Shown here: positions 5,211 through 61,043 of the stretch, one piece after another
Layout of the letters: each line of letters starts with the position of its first letter
Numbering within the stretch: position 1 is the stretch's first letter
NCBI GenBank assembly: GCA_023819255.1
Contig: JAMWBU010000001.1
Location: 16,348-80,347, forward strand
Length of the DNA: 64,000 nucleotides
Source: Candidatus Omnitrophota bacterium
GTDB taxonomy: Bacteria; Ratteibacteria; UBA8468; B48-G9; DTJG01
Direction of reading: 5' to 3'
Notes under the pieces: model-generated
Seen by the model: only the letters and a program-made list of their open reading frames with translations
What the model was told of the DNA's origin: nothing
Databases searched by the model: none
Program-made: the position numbers and the translations under genes

Positions 5211-7243
5211 CCATGTTATTGCCAGAAACATCAGTGAGGATGATTCCCGGCGTGGGCCCGCAGAGAATGGAACAATTTTTAAATCTGGGCATCAGCACGG
5301 TTCAAGATCTCCTTTTCCATTTTCCAAGAAGATATCTTGACAGAAGACAAATTAAGAAAATAAGCGAGATACTCCCGGGTGAAATTGTTTCCCTGAAGGG
5401 CGAGGTAATTGCCGCGGAAGAAAAGAAATTGCGTAGGATTTCTTTGATCAAAATAGCTGTTTCTGATGGCACAGGTGTGATCTTTCTGATTTTTTTTAAT
5501 CAGAATTATATTATCAATATTCTGAAAACCGGTATGAAGGTTTTTGCATATGGAAAGGTTGAGCAGTATGAGAAAAATTTGCAGATGAACAATCCACTTT
5601 TTGAGATCATAGAAAAAAAAAGGCCTGACTATATTCTTCCTGTCTATTCCACTGTTTCAGGATTGTCTCAGAATTTTATCAGGAAGTGCATAAAATACGC
5701 GCTAAAAAATCTCGAGAGTTTTTCGCCTGATATTTTGCCTTTAGAAGATAGAAGCAGGCTTAAACTTTCGAACATGAAGCATGCCATTACAAATATTCAT
5801 TTTCCGCAGAATCAGGTTAATTTAGAGAGGGCGAGAAGGCACCTGATTTTTGATGAATTCTTCAAACTTCAACTTGGGCTGTTGTACAAAAAAATCTGTG
5901 CCGGTGGCTCATCGGACAGTGTAGATGAAAATAAATTCAGAAGTTCATTAGTTCATATTTTTCAACAAATGCTGCCGTTCAGATTGACGGATGATCAGGT
6001 AAAGGTGATCGAAGAGATTTTGAAAGACCTGAACGCCGGCAGATTATTAAACCGTCTTCTTCAGGGAGAAGTGGGTTCAGGCAAAACCGTCATTGCCGTA
6101 TTTTTTCTGTGGCTTTTTGCCAGGGAAGGATTGCAGGGCGTTTTTCTTGCGCCAACCGAAATTCTGGCTGAGCAGCATTATCTCAACTGGCATCCTTTTT
6201 TTCTTTCTTGCGGGATTGAATGCGCTTTACTTACAGGGGGGCTCCCTGATAAAATGAAAAGGGAAATATGTTTCAGGATCGAAAAAAACGAAATAAAAGT
6301 TTTATTTGGAACTCATGCCCTTTTGAACGAAAAGATCAACTATCCGGGATTGAAAGCGATTGTTGTTGATGAGCAGCATAAATTTGGTGTTGAACAGAGA
6401 AACCTGCTTCAAAAGAAAGGAAGTCGAATCCATTATCTGGCGATGAGCGCAACTCCTATTCCAAGAAGCGTCGCTCTTGCTTTTTATGGAAATATTGACC
6501 TTTCAGCAATTGGCAGTTTGCCGAAAGGAAAAAGAAACGTTGTTAATTATTTATTCAGGCATGATGAAATTGAAAGGGTTTATGAGTTTATTAAAAAACA
6601 GGTTTCTGAACAAAAACAGGGATATTTTGTGGCTCCGACTATTGAAAGTTCAGAAGAGTCGTCAGTTGCGCATCATTTTAATAACATATCGACAATTGTG
6701 GGTCCAGAAAAAGTGGGATTATTGCATGGCAGGTTATCAGGCGCGGAAAAATCCATTGTCATTGAAAAATTCAGAAAAAAGCAAATTTTATTGATTGTTT
6801 CAACAACTGTTATAGAGGTTGGTCTGGATGTGCCGGATGCGAACTTCATCGTTATTGACCAATCTGAAAGATTCGGATTGTCGCAGCTTCATCAAATGCG
6901 GGGAAGAGTTGGCAGGAGTGGTGAAACAGGATACTGTATTTTAATTTACTACACAGATGATCCGGATGTTCTTGGACGGCTTGAATCATTTCTTGAAATA
7001 GAAGATGGTCTTAAACTGGCGGAAATAGACCTGTCCCTGAGGGGCCCGGGAGACCTGCTCGGTGTACGACAGCATGGAATTCTTCCTCTTAAGATTGGCA
7101 ACATAATCAAGGATATAGAGGTTCTTACAGAATCTCGTAAGGAGGCAGAAAGAATTCTAAAAAATCGTCTTTATCTGAATGGAAAATATATGAGGGTTAA
7201 TCAGTACCTTCAGCAGGTTATGAAAGGCAAGATAATTGATTGA
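5207..7243 (+). CDS. recG: ATP-dependent DNA helicase RecG
   Basis: N-terminal wedge/OB domain. Helicase motifs GEVGSGKT (Walker A), DEQHKFGV (DEQH box) and QLHQMRGRVGR (motif VI). Length 678 aa. Confidence 0.9.
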   Translation: MTMLLPETSVRMIPGVGPQRMEQFLNLGISTVQDLLFHFPRRYLDRRQIKKISEILPGEIVSLKGEVIAAEEKKLRRISLIKIAVSDGTGVIFLIFFNQNYIINILKTGMKVFAYGKVEQYEKNLQMNNPLFEIIEKKRPDYILPVYSTVSGLSQNFIRKCIKYALKNLESFSPDILPLEDRSRLKLSNMKHAITNIHFPQNQVNLERARRHLIFDEFFKLQLGLLYKKICAGGSSDSVDENKFRSSLVHIFQQMLPFRLTDDQVKVIEEILKDLNAGRLLNRLLQGEVGSGKTVIAVFFLWLFAREGLQGVFLAPTEILAEQHYLNWHPFFLSCGIECALLTGGLPDKMKREICFRIEKNEIKVLFGTHALLNEKINYPGLKAIVVDEQHKFGVEQRNLLQKKGSRIHYLAMSATPIPRSVALAFYGNIDLSAIGSLPKGKRNVVNYLFRHDEIERVYEFIKKQVSEQKQGYFVAPTIESSEESSVAHHFNNISTIVGPEKVGLLHGRLSGAEKSIVIEKFRKKQILLIVSTTVIEVGLDVPDANFIVIDQSERFGLSQLHQMRGRVGRSGETGYCILIYYTDDPDVLGRLESFLEIEDGLKLAEIDLSLRGPGDLLGVRQHGILPLKIGNIIKDIEVLTESRKEAERILKNRLYLNGKYMRVNQYLQQVMKGKIID

Positions 7244-54012: not shown

Positions 54013-54855
54013 TTATTCTGATTCAAGCCCCCAATTTTTCATATTTTCAAAGCTAATCTTTATTGCATCCCAGAGAGGATAAAGAGGAGAAAAGTCCATT
54101 TCCATTATTGCATATTTTGCGCTGGATTTTTTTGCTGCTGGAAGAATTTTTTGCCAGTTAAGATTACCAGTTCCGACAGGTACCATCGCCTGTTTATTAT
54201 CGGGGGACATTCCCATATCCTTGAAATGTATTGAGTTTAACCTTTTTGCATAATTTGTAATCCACTGAGCAGGGTCCCCCCCTCCATATTGAACCCAGTA
54301 TGTATCTATCTGCGCGGTAAGGGTACTTTCTGAGCTGCCCTCCATTATAATTTCAAGCCATGTTTTACCATCGCATTTTGCAAATTCAATTCCATGATTG
54401 TGATATCCGAGAGTAATTCCGTGTGCCTTCAGTGTGGAGGCAGCCCTTTCTATTTTTTCAGCTATTTTCTTTATGGCATCGATATCATGCGATTGAGAAC
54501 CAGGCCAGCTGATATTGCAGCAAAGGGCATTGAGTTTTGTCTGTTCGCTGGCAATGGCTTCTGGTTCTTTCAGTATTCTGTCAAGTCCGGTATGGCTTGA
54601 ACATATTTTCAATCCATTGTCATCCATAATTTTTTTAAACTGTTGTGGGTCGAGATTTGCCAGTCCTGCTGTTTCAACATATCTGTATCCGATATCTGAC
54701 AGTTTCTTTACAGCTTTCGAAAACTCTTCTATAGAACCATAAAATTCCCTGATAGTGTATAATTGAATTGCAATTTTCACTTTCCCCTCCCTGTGGTTTG
54801 ATTTTAACTGGCAGATATTTAATTCGAGTTTTATTTCTCTGTCAAATTTTTCCAC
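54013..54855 (-). CDS. Sugar phosphate isomerase/epimerase (xylose isomerase-like TIM barrel)
   Basis: IAIQLYTIREF… N-terminus and conserved His/Glu/Asp metal ligands (HNHG, IHFKD). Overlaps the ABC ATPase stop. Confidence 0.7.
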   Translation of the reverse strand: MEKFDREIKLELNICQLKSNHREGKVKIAIQLYTIREFYGSIEEFSKAVKKLSDIGYRYVETAGLANLDPQQFKKIMDDNGLKICSSHTGLDRILKEPEAIASEQTKLNALCCNISWPGSQSHDIDAIKKIAEKIERAASTLKAHGITLGYHNHGIEFAKCDGKTWLEIIMEGSSESTLTAQIDTYWVQYGGGDPAQWITNYAKRLNSIHFKDMGMSPDNKQAMVPVGTGNLNWQKILPAAKKSSAKYAIMEMDFSPLYPLWDAIKISFENMKNWGLESE

Positions 54856-55634
54856 GATTCAGGGATACCAAAAACATATGGTTTCCCTGATACTGGATGC
54901 GGATAAACAAGAACATTCGTGTGATAAACATCTTCTATGATTTCGAATTTTATTACATCCTGAACTTCTCCAAATTTTATTACAGAACCGTTTTTCAGTA
55001 AAAGAATATTTTCACAATACTGGGAAGCAAGGTTGAGGTCGTGAAGGGCAGCAAGGATCGATAAATCTGATGTTTTTTGAAGAGTTTTTAAGAGGTCAAG
55101 AAAGGCAAATTGAAATCCAATGTCAAGATGTGATGTCGGTTCATCGAGAACAATTAATTCTGGTTCCTGAACAAGGCATTGAGCAAGCAGAACTCTTTGT
55201 TTTTCGCCTTCTGACATCTGAAAAATTGTTCTATCAAAGAACGGAGTTAGCTCCATTTGCTTTGAAATTGACACAATGATTTCAATGTCTCTTTTTGAGG
55301 GATTGCGAAAATCTGATGAGAATGGATATCTTGCCATCAAAAGTAATTCCTTTACAGTATATGGATATGCAATTTCAATATCTGATGGTAAAAAAGAGAC
55401 ACTTTTAGCAAAATCGCGGGCTGAAATTTTTCCTGTGTCAGTGTTTTTAAATAACACCTGTCCCTTTGAGTGTCGAAGAATTTTCACCGCGGTTTTTAGC
55501 AGAGTTGATTTTCCACTGCCATTTGGTCCAATAACTCCCACAAAATTTCCTTTTTTCATTTGAAAACTGATGTTGTGAAGAATTTCTTCTTTGCCATAAG
55601 CAGCACTGACATTTTTGAATTCAAGTATTACCAT
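54831..55634 (-). CDS. btuD: ABC transporter ATP-binding protein, corrinoid/iron-siderophore type (BtuD/FepC-like)
   Basis: GPNGSGKSTLLK (Walker A), LSEGEKQRV (signature) and VLDEPTSHLD (Walker B). Confidence 0.8.
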   Translation of the reverse strand: MVILEFKNVSAAYGKEEILHNISFQMKKGNFVGVIGPNGSGKSTLLKTAVKILRHSKGQVLFKNTDTGKISARDFAKSVSFLPSDIEIAYPYTVKELLLMARYPFSSDFRNPSKRDIEIIVSISKQMELTPFFDRTIFQMSEGEKQRVLLAQCLVQEPELIVLDEPTSHLDIGFQFAFLDLLKTLQKTSDLSILAALHDLNLASQYCENILLLKNGSVIKFGEVQDVIKFEIIEDVYHTNVLVYPHPVSGKPYVFGIPESWKNLTEK

Positions 55635-56608
55635 TTTTGTTTTCTCGCTGTTTTGAGAAGTAAGAAAACAAATATTATACCGCCAAAAAAGCCGCTTATA
55701 ACACCTACTGGAATTTCAATCGGTTGTACGATTGTTCGTGCAAGGGTATCAGCAAGTATCAAAAAAGAGCCTCCAACCAGTATTGTGGATGGTATCGTTT
55801 TTTTGTGGTCTGCTCCGACCAGGATTCTTACAGCATGCGGAATTACAAGACCCACAAAGCCAACAAGTCCGGCAAGAGAAACGCAGTATCCGGTAATCAA
55901 TCCTGTGATGACAAACCAGATGTATTTTTTCTTTTCCGGGTCAAGCCCGAGTGCGACAGATTTTTCTTCGCCCATTGAAAAAATATTAAGTTGTTTCCAG
56001 AACAGCCATGTGACCGCGTACGCGGGCAAGAGAAATAGAGGAGCAATTTTGAGAACATCTGATTGATAACTGCTCAGATTTCCCATAAACCAGATTACTG
56101 CTTCCATAAACCGTTCTTTTTGTAGCAATGTTATTACAAGCAGAGAAAAGGAAGAGAATATGAAATTTAGCATTATTCCAATTAGAATCAGTGTCCCCGC
56201 AGATAGTTTTCTTATTGATGCAGCCAGCAGCAGAACAAGTATTGATAAAATGCTGCCGGCAAACGCAAAAACAGGTATGGATGCCATCTGTCCCAGAATA
56301 ATTCCAGCAGCGATTCCAATGCTGGCTCCTCCGGAAATACCCAGTATGTAACTTTCAGCAAGTGGATTTTTCAGGATTGCCTGTAATATCAGTCCTGACA
56401 GTGAAAGACCGGATCCAACCAGAAAGGCGCACCACACTCTTGGTATCCTGATTTGAAAAAGAATTGTGCTTTCAAATTGATAATCATAAGGTTTTGAAAA
56501 TATTCTTATCAATTTCAGTGGAGAATAAGTTTCAATACCCGAGCAGACTCCTGTGAGAATGGCGACACCTGTTAATGTAATGATTAATAAAGATGCTTTC
56601 TTTTTCAA
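55628..56608 (-). CDS. btuC: ABC transporter permease, FecCD/BtuC family
   Basis: Polytopic, about 9 TM. FecCD signature region …LAESYILGISGGASIG…. Confidence 0.8.
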   Translation of the reverse strand: MKKKASLLIITLTGVAILTGVCSGIETYSPLKLIRIFSKPYDYQFESTILFQIRIPRVWCAFLVGSGLSLSGLILQAILKNPLAESYILGISGGASIGIAAGIILGQMASIPVFAFAGSILSILVLLLAASIRKLSAGTLILIGIMLNFIFSSFSLLVITLLQKERFMEAVIWFMGNLSSYQSDVLKIAPLFLLPAYAVTWLFWKQLNIFSMGEEKSVALGLDPEKKKYIWFVITGLITGYCVSLAGLVGFVGLVIPHAVRILVGADHKKTIPSTILVGGSFLILADTLARTIVQPIEIPVGVISGFFGGIIFVFLLLKTARKQKW

Positions 56609-57438
56609 TTTTTCAGAAATTCTGAAATGGTTTTGATGGACCTTAGAAAACTCAAGGGAGTTGGGCTACAGAAGTCATAGTCGTCCACCCGAAAAATTTG
56701 ATTTTTTTTGACCGCTTTAACATTTTTAAATGAATTCCAGAAATTCATTGCGTATTCGTCTTCTCCCATTCCCATTACAATGATGACATCAGGGTTCCTT
56801 TTGATCACTTCTTCAACATTCACTGTGATATATTTTGTTTTTATGTTATTAAAAATATTTGTGCCTCCGGCATAAAGCGAGATTTCATTAAAATAGGTAT
56901 TTGAACCAGCAGTAAAAAGAGGTCGAGTGCCTATCTGCCAGAAAATTGTTTTCTTTCTGGCAAATCTTTTTTGCCTGTATTTTATAAGTTCGAAATCCAC
57001 ATCATCAATGATTTTTTTTGCAATATCCTTTTTTCCGAATATTTCAGCAAGTGTGAGAAAATTATTCTTGAGATTTTCATAATTTACCACTTCATCAAGG
57101 ACCTTAACCTTTATTCCTAAATTTATAAGGTTTTCCACAGTTTGTTTGCGATTACCTTCTTTGCTTGCGATTACTATGTCAGGTTTAATTTTTATTATTG
57201 CCTCGATATTTGGATCCAGCAAAGTTCCTATAATTTCTCTTCCTTTTTTTACCTCTGGCTTTTCGTGAATTGTAACACCGATGATTTCTTTTTCTATTCC
57301 AAGTAGCAGTAAATTTTCGGTAATATAAGGTCCAAGAGAAACTACCCTTGAAAATTGCCGTGATGTTGTTTCAGAATGACAATTGCAGGTTAAAATTGTC
57401 AGAATAAAAAAAAACATTACTAAAATTTTTCTCATCAT
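56605..57438 (-). CDS. btuF: Periplasmic substrate-binding protein, class III (BtuF/FepB-like)
   Basis: Signal peptide, then RVVSLGPYITENLLLLGI…IIGV typical of the BtuF/FhuD fold. Confidence 0.7.
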   Translation of the reverse strand: MMRKILVMFFFILTILTCNCHSETTSRQFSRVVSLGPYITENLLLLGIEKEIIGVTIHEKPEVKKGREIIGTLLDPNIEAIIKIKPDIVIASKEGNRKQTVENLINLGIKVKVLDEVVNYENLKNNFLTLAEIFGKKDIAKKIIDDVDFELIKYRQKRFARKKTIFWQIGTRPLFTAGSNTYFNEISLYAGGTNIFNNIKTKYITVNVEEVIKRNPDVIIVMGMGEDEYAMNFWNSFKNVKAVKKNQIFRVDDYDFCSPTPLSFLRSIKTISEFLKN

Positions 57439-58343: not shown

Positions 58344-59054
58344 TTATTCAAGATCATACAGTGACGCGTCTGAAGAAAGATCCCCAAGATTTTTATCGTT
58401 TGCGCTTGTGTTATACTTCGTTCCAATAGATTCAACATGACCGTCGCAAAATAGAACATTTGCTCTTTCATTATGCCTGAAATGCGTATTTGGGCCAAAA
58501 TAATAGATGTCTCCCGGTGCTCTTAAATAATTATTCGCAATTGTTTCTGAAGTCCAGCTTGACCAGATTGCGCTATCTGCCACAAGAACGGTCTGTGATG
58601 GATTTTGAATTCTACTTAATTTTGCAGGCAGGTCTGCCTGTCCTACCCAATCAGAATATCCTCCCCCAATATACGATGCATTGTAGGCATATCCAGTATA
58701 CGGCCTATCGTATGATTTAAGAGTGAATCTCGAGGGGCACTGGAAAACCTTTTCATTAAGGTATTTTCCAATTATACCCGGTTTCCAGTTTGTCCAGTCA
58801 TCAGTTGCAAAGTCCCAGCCGATTTCACCTGTAAATGAAGCATAGTATGTGGGTGGGAAAAATTCGTCATTATCCTGAACATACATTGCAAAGGCAAGAT
58901 ATATTTGTTTTAAATTGCTCAAGCAAACTGCAGATCTTGCTTTTTCTCTTGCCTTTGCCAGCACTGGTAATAGTAGCGCTGCCAGTATAGCGATTATAGC
59001 CACCACCACCAGAAGTTCTATCAGAGTGAAACCTGACTGCCTTTTCCTGTCCAT
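58344..59054 (-). CDS. Prepilin-type N-terminal cleavage/methylation domain protein with a C-terminal DUF1559 (H-X9-DG) domain
   Basis: [32 protein letters not shown] (G|FTLIE prepilin motif). [13 protein letters not shown] fits H-X9-DG. Confidence 0.8.
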
Positions 59055-59076
59055 ACTGACTCCTTGTTTTATGCGG

Positions 59077-59330
59077 GCAAAATAAAAACCCGCCTGACGG
59101 CGGGCTGCACCCTGATTCCTTTGCCCATCATCGCGTCCTGTGCTCCGCAGGGTCGCTTTAATCCGTCTCGCAGGCAGGTCTTCTGACTTCTCTTATTCTG
59201 ACCAGCCTTCCCATTCATATGAACAGTGGCACTTCAGGCCAGAATCACCCATCAGGATATGGGTCGAGTTACAGCGCCGGGAGCGTGTCTGATTTTCACA
59301 GACTTCCCTATTAAGCCAACTTTTGGCGCC
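59077..59330 (-). promoter_or_regulatory. Cobalamin (AdoCbl/B12) riboswitch with an intrinsic-terminator expression platform
   Basis: Minus-strand RNA reads …UUAAUAGGGAAGUCUGUGAAAAUCAGACACGCUCCCGGCGCUGUAA…GUGCCACUGUUCAUAUGAAUGGGAAGGCUGGUCAGAAUAAGAGAAGUCAGAAGACCUGCC…. These match the cobalamin riboswitch cores (AGGGAA, GUGAAAAUC, GCCACUG, and the B12 box AGUCAGAAGACCUGCC). It is followed by the hairpin CCCGCC-GUCA-GGCGGG plus UUUUUAUUUU at 59077..59104. The region is GC-rich in an AT-rich genome. Confidence 0.8.
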
Positions 59331-59415
59331 TGCGAAATTTGAAATTATTTTAGAATATTTTTTTTTATCTGTCAAGGGTCTGAATTGCGCCACAGTAAAT
59401 CTATCCAGAGAGGTG

Positions 59416-60237
59416 TCATATAAACATTATTCCTGCGTATCCAACCACCTGTTCAAAATCCCCTGAAACATTCCCGCTATTTGTATAATCAACAAGTATT
59501 CCCTGTCGGGCTTCAAGAATTTTTGATGCGGTAATTGCGGCAGTGATCGGTGCGAAACCGCATATACTAATATCATGTTCTGAAACAATGTTCAAAAACT
59601 CATCTGCGTCAAGTTTGAGTATTTTTTCGATTGCCATTCTGTCTTTTTTCTCTGCCTGTTCAGCCGGTTCATAGTGAGTGAAATCCGAACTTGCAACTAC
59701 AATCGCATTTCTTTTTATTTCGCTAAGTGCCAGGGCAATTGAATATCCTATTTCATACCATGGATTTGCATCATACATGCTTGAAATTAAAACAGGTACA
59801 ATTTTCACAGCAGGATTTAAAAATTGCAGAAAAGGAACCTGTACTTCAATGGAATGTTCGGATTTGTGTGACATAGAATCAATTTGAAGATATCTGCTTT
59901 TCTCAAGCAACTTTTTTCTTATTTCAGTGTCTATTTCAACATTACCAATCGGTGTTTCCCACTCATCGCTATCATCTATTGCATAAGGTTCGCCGTAGCC
60001 ATGATGGTTTGGCCCGAGTATAATTGCTGTTTCAAACTGAGCAATTTTTCCGTAGACCTTACCTGCTGTTTTTCCGCTGTAGACATAACCGGCATGCGGG
60101 CAGATGATTCCCTTTGGGATGATTTTATTTTCTTCGTATACAATGTATTTTTTCAAATCTTCAATGAGATTGGTTTTCATTCCGGGGTAAAAATACCCGC
60201 TTACAGATGGTTTTCTGATTTTTTTCATTTTGATCAA
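59416..60237 (-). CDS. MEMO1-family protein (AmmeMemoRadiSam system protein B-like)
   Basis: …GIICPHAGYVYSGKTAGKVY… and overall Memo-like dioxygenase-fold motifs. 273 aa. Confidence 0.7.
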   Translation of the reverse strand: MIKMKKIRKPSVSGYFYPGMKTNLIEDLKKYIVYEENKIIPKGIICPHAGYVYSGKTAGKVYGKIAQFETAIILGPNHHGYGEPYAIDDSDEWETPIGNVEIDTEIRKKLLEKSRYLQIDSMSHKSEHSIEVQVPFLQFLNPAVKIVPVLISSMYDANPWYEIGYSIALALSEIKRNAIVVASSDFTHYEPAEQAEKKDRMAIEKILKLDADEFLNIVSEHDISICGFAPITAAITASKILEARQGILVDYTNSGNVSGDFEQVVGYAGIMFI

Positions 60238-61043
60238 TAACTCAGTTTAACCGCAAGTGTTTTCAGAAAATCCCTTGCCTTTGTTATGTCTGCTTCCGGA
60301 TTTTTTCCAACTTCTCTTTCGATAGTAAAAAATCCGTTAAAACCGATATCTTTCATTGCTTTTAGATACTCGGGGAAATTTACATTTCCTTCACCAAGTG
60401 GCAGTTCTTTCCACCTTTTTTTCCCATTTTCGTCAGCAAGTTTAATTCCGTCTTTCGCATGTGTGTGGACTATATAGTCTTTCAACGTATATACACCTTT
60501 TACAGGGTCATCGCCAGCCACCATAACAAGATTTGCCGGGTCATAATTAACCATGATGCCGGGATTGTTCAATTCCACCAATAGTTTTTTTAGAATTTCT
60601 GCTGGCTCAGGCCCGGTTTCAGTAGCTAACACAATTCCTTTATTTGCGGCATAATTACCCACTTCTGGCAGGGATTGCAGCAAGAGTTTCCATTCAACAG
60701 CCTCTTGATTTTCCGGCACAATTCCAATGTGAGTCGTTACAATTTTTACTCCGAGCTCAAGCGCAAGGTCAATTACTTCAATGGTTCTACCAACACGCCA
60801 GTCAAGGGTTTTTGAATCTGTGAAGCCATGTCCTCCAAAATCTCCGACAATTGCCGATATTTCAAGCCCGAGGTCAGACACAAACTTTTTAAAATCACTT
60901 CTTGCGGTTTTGGACATATTTGCTGGATCCAGTTCTCCTTTCGTTGCATACGGCTGAATTCCATCAAGGGACAATTCCTTCGCTTTTTTTATTGCGTCTT
61001 TGACAGGAATTCTGAAACAATCAGGAATGACTCCGATTTTCAC
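60234..61043 (-). CDS. Sugar phosphate isomerase/epimerase (xylose isomerase-like TIM barrel), second copy
   Basis: Same fold signature with conserved E/H/D ligands (…ATETG…, …HTHAKDG…, …FTIERE…). Distinct in sequence from the 54013..54855 copy. Confidence 0.65.
   Translation of the reverse strand: MKIGVIPDCFRIPVKDAIKKAKELSLDGIQPYATKGELDPANMSKTARSDFKKFVSDLGLEISAIVGDFGGHGFTDSKTLDWRVGRTIEVIDLALELGVKIVTTHIGIVPENQEAVEWKLLLQSLPEVGNYAANKGIVLATETGPEPAEILKKLLVELNNPGIMVNYDPANLVMVAGDDPVKGVYTLKDYIVHTHAKDGIKLADENGKKRWKELPLGEGNVNFPEYLKAMKDIGFNGFFTIEREVGKNPEADITKARDFLKTLAVKLSY

Follow-up and report, generated by a model that had tools for sequence, protein, structure and literature searches.

A class-I cobalamin riboswitch as the probable leader of an operon for a pilin-like DUF1559 protein and a BtuFCD-like importer, and the linkage of a DUF1559 clade to cobalamin riboswitches

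Analysis of a 64-kb stretch of DNA (hereafter the window) showed a cobalamin riboswitch on the minus strand, which very probably serves as the 5' leader of an operon of six genes on the same strand and acts as a class-I, transcription-terminating OFF switch, the 66-aa open reading frame (ORF) across it being open by chance. The riboswitch itself is an ordinary new member of the Rfam family RF00174, with the standard layout of promoter, aptamer, P13 and terminator. The first gene behind it encodes a prepilin-type protein with the DUF1559 and H-X9-DG domains. Among homologous loci with at least 300 nt of upstream sequence, 46 of 68 had a cobalamin riboswitch ahead of this gene, and the riboswitch-linked clade may belong to corrinoid acquisition or salvage.

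The aptamer and the reading frame across it

A search of the whole 64-kb window against Rfam (cmscan, gathering threshold) gave a single match, the cobalamin riboswitch RF00174 at 59348..59156 on the minus strand, with a score of 93.4 bits (E 6.6e-22) compared to a gathering score of 31.5 bits; no tRNA or other known RNA family was detected at gathering level. The alignment was full-length, covering model positions 1-189 of 189. A cobalamin riboswitch on this strand had been proposed in an earlier note made from the letters alone, which had suggested a covariance-model search with RF00174, and the strong match bore the proposal out. All eight motifs listed there were found on the minus strand at their places (Table 1). 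Of these, only the long motifs CCCGGCGCUGUAA and AGUCAGAAGACCUGCC (the B12 box) occurred a single time in the window. The short ones recurred (AGGGAA 60 times, CCCGCC 15 times) and therefore carried no weight on their own, the joint test being the covariance model. The B12 box and the conserved junction nucleotides (GGGAA, GCCACUG, GGGAAGGC, and GCUGUAA) were all present in canonical order and spacing. The GC-rich island described earlier is real, with a GC content of 0.515 in the element vs. 0.388 in the window, but the 5' limit set for it (59330) cuts off the 5' strand of P1 (59335..59328), and the Rfam match reaches 59348.

In the cmscan alignment, P2, P4, P5, and P6 were paired, non-canonical pairs being confined to the outermost part of P1 and a few other positions. 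Whether the conserved helices can form had been raised as a further check on the riboswitch reading; eight Watson-Crick pairs were found for P1, and P2 to P6 fitted the consensus structure. Among 35 homologous riboswitches, many double-sided compensatory changes occurred in P5 and in the helix of GCCACUG and GGGAAGGC (P6 region). Covariation was scored for these two helices only, because P1, P2, and P4 were misaligned across phyla, and RNAalifold recovered only 11 pairs from the 35-sequence covariance-model alignment. The minimum free energy of the leader had a z-score of only −1.65, so that thermodynamic stability alone is no evidence; membership of the aptamer in the family is established by its sequence and structure.

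At the aptamer, RF00174 scored higher than the rest of clan CL00101. Together with the presence of the P6 extension, this assigns the element to the long, class-I (AdoCbl-type) architecture, from which its ligand selectivity is predicted. Class-II aptamers for MeCbl/HyCbl do not have the P6 peripheral extension. Reference systems for class-I (AdoCbl) riboswitches are the btuB leader of E. coli and the crystallised aptamers of Thermoanaerobacter tengcongensis and Symbiobacterium thermophilum. With class-I members of RF00174, the window element shares the B12 box, the GCCACUG and GGGAAGGC cores, the four-way junction with its P6 extension, and a C-rich L5 with a downstream hairpin whose loop is complementary to it.

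The 66-aa ORF that the earlier note had reported over the same bases, and had called spurious, does exist (59393..59193, minus strand). It is open and has a GTG start, as a real small protein gene would; that it is one, with the RNA motifs coincidental, is nevertheless hardly credible. Starting ahead of the −35 box of the leader promoter, the ORF continues through the aptamer, and it has no match in Pfam or NCBIfam. In the three closest relatives (L001, L085, and L086), whose flanking protein is 80-83% identical to that of the window, all three frames of the homologous stretch are interrupted by stop codons, indels of 1, 2, and 11 nt are present, and the rate of substitution was flat over the codon positions (0.31/0.24/0.31). 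Coincidence of the RNA motifs is ruled out by the E-value of the RF00174 match. Judged from these comparisons, the ORF is a chance reading frame over an RNA element; the region is to be annotated as a cobalamin riboswitch leader and the ORF dropped. A 50-aa ORF is also present on the plus strand, at 59140..59292.

Table 1. Features of the riboswitch leader and of the operon downstream of it, in window coordinates.
Feature	Position	Strand	Basis or remarks
66-aa ORF, GTG start	59193..59393	−	overlies promoter and aptamer; judged not a gene
Sigma-70-type promoter	59347..59375	−	−35 TTGACA 59375..59370, 17-nt spacer, −10 TAAAAT 59352..59347
Cobalamin riboswitch aptamer	59156..59348	−	RF00174, compensatory changes in homologs
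P1, UCGCAGGC/GCCUGCGA	59335..59328 with 59175..59168	−	8 Watson-Crick pairs
P2 hairpin	59327..59315	−	RF00174 consensus alignment
AGGGAA motif	59309..59304	−	sequence
P4 hairpin	59303..59287	−	RF00174 consensus alignment
GUGAAAAUC motif	59299..59291	−	sequence
P5/L5, GCUCCCGGC	59284..59276	−	RF00174 consensus alignment
CCCGGCGCUGUAA motif	59281..59269	−	sequence
Core GCUGUAA	59275..59269	−	sequence
P6 peripheral extension	~59268..59190	−	model positions ~85-160; carries GCCACUG and GGGAAGGC
GCCACUG motif	59230..59224	−	sequence
GGGAAGGC motif	59212..59205	−	sequence
B12 box AGUCAGAAGACCUGCC	59188..59173	−	sequence
P13-like hairpin	59156..59133	−	fold −6.1 kcal/mol; loop L13 CGGAGCA 59147..59141
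Tract AAUCAGGGUGCA	59117..59106	−	directly 5' of terminator; core GGGUGCA invariant, first positions slightly variable
Intrinsic terminator	59077..59106	−	stem GCCCGCC/GGCGGGU, loop GUCA (59106..59087), ~−15 kcal/mol
CCCGCC / GGCGGG	59104..59099 / 59094..59089	−	sequence
Terminator U-run UUUUUAUUUU	59088..59079	−	follows stem directly
Shine-Dalgarno AAGGAG	59065..59060	−	5 nt ahead of ATG at 59054
First gene, 236-aa prepilin-type DUF1559/H-X9-DG protein	58344..59054	−	signal G|FTLIE, long N-terminal helix
Stand-alone homocysteine S-methyltransferase, 299 aa	57435..58334	−	PF02574, 244.7 bits
BtuF-like binding protein (Peripla_BP_2)	57438..56605	−	best NCBIfam match BtuF
BtuC-like FecCD permease	56608..55628	−	FecCD domain
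ABC ATPase	55634..54831	−	ABC_tran domain
Xylose-isomerase-like TIM-barrel protein	54013..54855	−	25-nt overlap with ATPase gene

Expression platform and predicted mode of switching

The promoter found by pattern scan ahead of the aptamer fits the consensus at 11 of 12 positions and is conserved in the syntenic relatives L001, L085, and L086, where TATAAT or TAAAAT is aligned with its −10 element. Transcription would start near 59340, approximately 5 nt ahead of P1. Downstream of the aptamer, the loop of the P13-like hairpin offers GGAGC, which is complementary to GCUCC of L5 (L5-L13 duplex of −9.7 kcal/mol in the window). The P13 and terminator hairpins of related leaders were taken out per sequence, the MAFFT alignment of the platform having slipped register on the 3' strands. 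Within 10 leaders of the AT-rich clade, pairing of the P13 stem was kept through double-sided changes at positions 2, 4, 5, and 7 (e.g., CCUG/CAGG, UCUG/CAGA, and UCCG/CGGA), and the L13 loops of 10 related leaders remained G-rich, with no clear covariation with L5. L13 is thus a candidate kissing-loop partner of L5, suggested by complementarity. The earlier note had placed the kissing loop between the B12 box and L5; riboswitches of this class regulate through a kissing loop between L5 and L13, and the hairpin at 59156..59133 has a fitting L13.

The canonical intrinsic terminator of the earlier note is present at 59106..59087 with its U-run. It has 8 pairs (6 G-C), a 4-nt loop, and 9 U within the next 10 nt. 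A pattern scan for terminators performed at chance level when taken alone (1 found vs. 1.1 expected in shuffles), and support for this terminator comes from its conservation at the same place in 11 of 12 related AT-rich leaders rather than from the single-site scan. In the related leaders, the basal pair switches between G-C, A-U, and G-U, and the loop measures 3-9 nt. Over 10 leaders, GGGUGCA and both terminator arms were sequence-invariant and the P13 stem and the terminator loop varied freely; the tract AAUCAGGGUGCA may have a part in an alternative (ON-state) pairing.

This anatomy suggests attenuation of transcription in the presence of B12. RNA polymerase would be driven by the sigma-70 promoter from its predicted start, and a corrinoid, most likely adenosylcobalamin, would bind the four-way-junction aptamer (59335..59168) and organise the junction, with L5 docking on loop L13 of the P13 hairpin downstream. 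The docked platform would be held in the form in which the GC-rich terminator (59106..59087 and U-run) folds. Polymerase would then stop approximately 25 nt ahead of the ribosome-binding site, with less read-through into the operon. When B12 is scarce, polymerase would read through, and the pilin-like DUF1559 protein, the homocysteine S-methyltransferase, and the BtuFCD-type corrinoid importer would be made.

A pairing for the ON state was sought with RNAduplex, matching the invariant tract and the 5' arm of the terminator against the whole leader, and no convincing antiterminator emerged. A duplex with CCGGCGCUGU of the aptamer core, at −16 to −23 kcal/mol, was a weak candidate only; it beat shuffles in the window, L001, and L085 (p = 0.04, 0.013, and 0.003, respectively) and in none of seven other leaders. 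The minimum free energy structure of the full leader (−92.5 kcal/mol) already consisted of aptamer, P13, and terminator, even without ligand. Enforcing the candidate antiterminator yielded −78.7 kcal/mol, approximately 14 kcal/mol worse. Control by the riboswitch may be kinetic.

Many cobalamin riboswitches act on the ribosome-binding site, as does that of E. coli btuB. In several high-GC homologous leaders, the aptamer is separated from the start codon by only ~20 nt and a terminator is absent, indicating that the family uses both output modes. Nevertheless, action of the window element on translation initiation, alone or besides termination, with the hairpin and U-run not being the main output, is very unlikely, since its Shine-Dalgarno sequence, located 14 nt past the U-run, was unpaired in every predicted fold and the terminator is kept in 11 of the 12 leaders of its clade. 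With termination as the preferred output, the leader differs from that of E. coli btuB, which works by sequestration of the ribosome-binding site. Transcription-terminating cobalamin riboswitches upstream of btuFCD and of cob/cbi operons in Firmicutes were reportedly described by Vitreschak and Rodionov in 2003, by comparative genomics. The window leader resembles these in having an aptamer and then a terminator ahead of a corrinoid ABC importer, whereas the Firmicutes leaders usually contain a recognisable antiterminator overlapping the terminator, which was not found in the leader of the window.

The controlled operon and the linkage of its first gene to cobalamin riboswitches

Downstream of the riboswitch are six co-directional genes on the minus strand whose boundaries overlap or nearly abut (Table 1). 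The genes for the BtuF-like protein, the BtuC-like permease, and the ATPase (54831..57438) have overlapping start and stop codons. Their products scored below the NCBIfam equivalog cut-offs for BtuF, BtuC, and BtuD (116 vs. 234, 199 vs. 334, and 121 vs. 281, respectively) and are therefore labelled BtuFCD-like, the assignment to B12 resting on the riboswitch control. The TIM-barrel gene at 54013..54855 is syntenic in L001, L085, and L086 and probably ends the operon. The arrangement from riboswitch to operon is common to the same three relatives.

The homocysteine S-methyltransferase also remained below all NCBIfam equivalog cut-offs, with the YitJ N-terminal and BHMT models as best matches. 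In metE-type logic, a B12 riboswitch represses a B12-independent isozyme, and a homocysteine methyltransferase within a putatively B12-repressed operon is in line with this; unlike MetE, the enzyme encoded here has an S-methyl_trans domain (MetH N-terminal/MmuM/BHMT-type). At L088, L093 (4610-6332), and L094, a stand-alone pterin-binding (PF00809) module comes after a homocysteine methyltransferase gene. The two proteins resemble parts of a split MetH without the B12 domain, and in view of the pterin module the methyltransferase may belong to a split MetH-like system.

The upstream flank of the operon (59416..61043, minus strand) contains genes for an AmmeMemoRadiSam-system protein B (Memo) and a xylose-isomerase-like TIM-barrel protein, so that one of two paralogous TIM-barrel genes lies upstream of the operon and the other (54013..54855) ends it. 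The gene order dxs-NAD kinase-ferredoxin-TIM-Memo-riboswitch was common to the window, L001, and L167. Elsewhere in the window, a complete type IV pilus cluster occupies 12460..23065 (minus strand), including a secretin, a SPOR-domain protein, PilN, PilM, PilC (T2SSF), two ComP_DUS-like pilins (17406..17795 and 17842..18234), and a PilB-type ATPase with an MshEN domain. T2SSE genes adjoin the riboswitch loci in L003 and L165. A survey of Omnitrophota reported that cobalamin biosynthesis is not universal in the phylum and that type-4a pilus genes are common (PMC10066038).

The 236-aa protein of the first gene has a class III prepilin signal, with a short basic leader ahead of G|FTLIE and Glu at +5, followed by a long hydrophobic N-terminal helix. 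It matched PF07596 (DUF1559) with 42.3 bits (cut-off 23.3), aligned over only the first 46 of 268 profile positions, and TIGR04294 (H-X9-DG) with 28.1 bits (cut-off 19), the motif being H194...D204-G205. Nothing like its head domain was found in the PDB beyond the pilin fold. The closest homologs were encoded in MAGs labelled Ca. Omnitrophica/Omnitrophota, Ca. Ratteibacteria, Armatimonadetes, or merely 'bacterium'. Planctomycetota, Verrucomicrobiota, and Lentisphaerota have massively expanded sets of DUF1559 proteins, and we know of no member of the family with a known biochemical function. In the literature searched, which covered few subscription journals, DUF1559 was mentioned rarely and nowhere functionally. 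No report tying DUF1559, H-X9-DG, or pilin-like proteins to cobalamin riboswitches was found there, most subscription journals lying outside the search.

By counting loci with at least 300 nt of upstream sequence, a same-strand riboswitch was found upstream at 46 of 68 homologous loci vs. 2 of 77 generic DUF1559 paralogs; the distance was within 300 nt in 38 of the 46. Target loci were obtained from metagenome contigs with a query limited to the C-terminal head, and control loci from GTDB genomes via the generic pilin N-terminus, which yielded distant paralogs only. Riboswitches were called with a custom covariance model (R1) and with Rfam, which confirmed 44 loci. R1 overlooked divergent riboswitches in L110, L111, L118, and L121 that were found by Rfam, so that R1-negative loci are not all true negatives. 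Both positives among the controls, L007 (Ca. Kuenenia) and L015 (a Chthoniobacteraceae MAG), were real riboswitches.

Binned by identity to the window protein, linkage amounted to 9/9 at 60% or above, 9/9 at 50-60%, 18/31 at 40-50%, 11/59 at 30-40%, and 0/3 below 30%; at 50% identity or more, all 18 loci were linked. The signature P-x-T-G-Y-A-Y-N predicted riboswitch linkage in 31 of 32 cases (Fisher p = 3e-18). In addition, all seven contexts retrieved by exact protein identity (52-83% identity) showed an RF00174 match of 84-111 bits upstream of the DUF1559 gene.

Gene content behind the riboswitch differed between loci. The order DUF1559-BtuF-BtuC-BtuD was present in L004 and L166, CobA/BtuR-DUF1559-BtuFCD in L003, and DUF1559-BtuF in L165 (an Armatimonadetes MAG), with a FecCD gene further downstream past a gap. 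DUF1559 stands alone behind the riboswitch in L002, and L167, which is syntenic with the window, has kept the riboswitch and DUF1559 gene with BtuFCD absent. No TonB-dependent receptor gene was found in the seven annotated operons. CobU, CobT, and CobS are encoded by corrinoid nucleotide-loop salvage genes, and CobU-CobT (DBI_PRT)-CobS followed directly downstream of the riboswitch-linked DUF1559 gene in L087 (4609-6939), L098, L103, and L128. At some loci, a second DUF1559 paralog in tandem was the operon partner. High-GC loci contained a recurrent pair of unnamed secreted families in variable order relative to DUF1559 (L131:4599-6062 and 6150-6692; also L112, L113, L115, L116, L110, L118, L147, and L160). 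One of them, fam4, comprises proteins of 300-500 aa with a signal peptide and no more than a faint similarity to the LIC_13355 lipoprotein; the other, fam6, is ~180-227 aa long with a PEP-CTERM tail. Neither belongs to a Pfam family.

Several further RNA elements were observed at the fetched loci. Two separate same-strand RF00174 riboswitches lie within 3 kb in L093 (44-224 and 2843-3023). Among the riboswitches linked to DUF1559, short variants of 123-156 nt with much lower RF00174 scores (36-48 bits) were seen at L121:3656-3778, at L110 and L118:3581-3736, and at L111:2275-2430; that of L121 fitted RF01482 (AdoCbl) best. Group II intron domains (RF00029) were matched in two loci (L003:10534-10617 and L152:144-214), and the Acido-Lenti-1 sRNA (RF01687) in a third (L148:1573-1618).

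What the linkage may mean for corrinoid acquisition

The DUF1559 gene could be a passenger between the riboswitch and btuFCD in this lineage, without a role in B12 physiology, as would be compatible with a family of no known biochemical function and a head whose only resemblance in the PDB is to the pilin fold. Such a passenger is unlikely. Against it stand the difference in linkage between homologous loci and generic paralogs, the complete linkage at 50% identity or more, and the predictive power of the signature. Linkage also persists in unrelated neighbourhoods, i.e., with BtuFCD, with CobU/T/S, after CobA/BtuR, and with DUF1559 alone. Co-regulation and co-localisation over several phyla and gene orders thus argue for the alternative, in which the riboswitch-linked clade would belong to corrinoid acquisition or salvage. 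For some direct role of the clade of DUF1559/H-X9-DG proteins with the PxTGYAYN signature in corrinoid acquisition, we consider the chances to be about even.

In such a role, the clade protein would be a prepilin-processed B12 receptor or hand-off protein feeding BtuFCD and cobUTS salvage. It could be displayed on the type IV pilus and retracted through the secretin, in the way that competence pilins bring in DNA. In Omnitrophota, Ratteibacteria, Armatimonadota, Planctomycetota, and Verrucomicrobiota it might then stand in for the TonB-dependent BtuB, although a pilus-borne B12 receptor in this specific sense is a doubtful proposition. Alternatively, it could be a membrane-anchored periplasmic binder passing B12 to BtuF. 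The first regulated gene here encodes a pilin-like protein, whereas in the btuB system it encodes a TonB-dependent receptor.

The closest functional analogy is with BtuG and BtuH of Bacteroides, accessory lipoproteins that bind B12 at the cell surface and are encoded in riboswitch-controlled btu loci. Like the DUF1559 protein, they are extracytoplasmic accessory proteins within a B12-riboswitch-controlled uptake locus. They are unrelated to it in sequence and fold: BtuG is a beta-propeller lipoprotein working with the TonB-dependent BtuB, whereas the DUF1559 protein combines a prepilin signal with a pilin-type fold. ComP of Neisseria and the ComGC-type competence pilins are minor pilins of uptake pili that bind ligands; compared to these, the head of the DUF1559 protein is twice as large and carries DUF1559/H-X9-DG, and its putative cargo would be a vitamin rather than DNA.

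The riboswitch serves as a functional label, placing a pilin-like DUF1559 protein and, in other lineages, unnamed secreted and PEP-CTERM partners into the B12 regulon. A role in corrinoid acquisition, if true, would be the first function for any member of the large DUF1559 family, and the B12-linked clade comes with a specific ligand to test. It would also suggest a route for a 1.3-kDa vitamin over the outer membrane in diderms without an obvious BtuB. The finding is valuable mainly because it points to a member of the B12 regulon that is conserved and apparently unreported.
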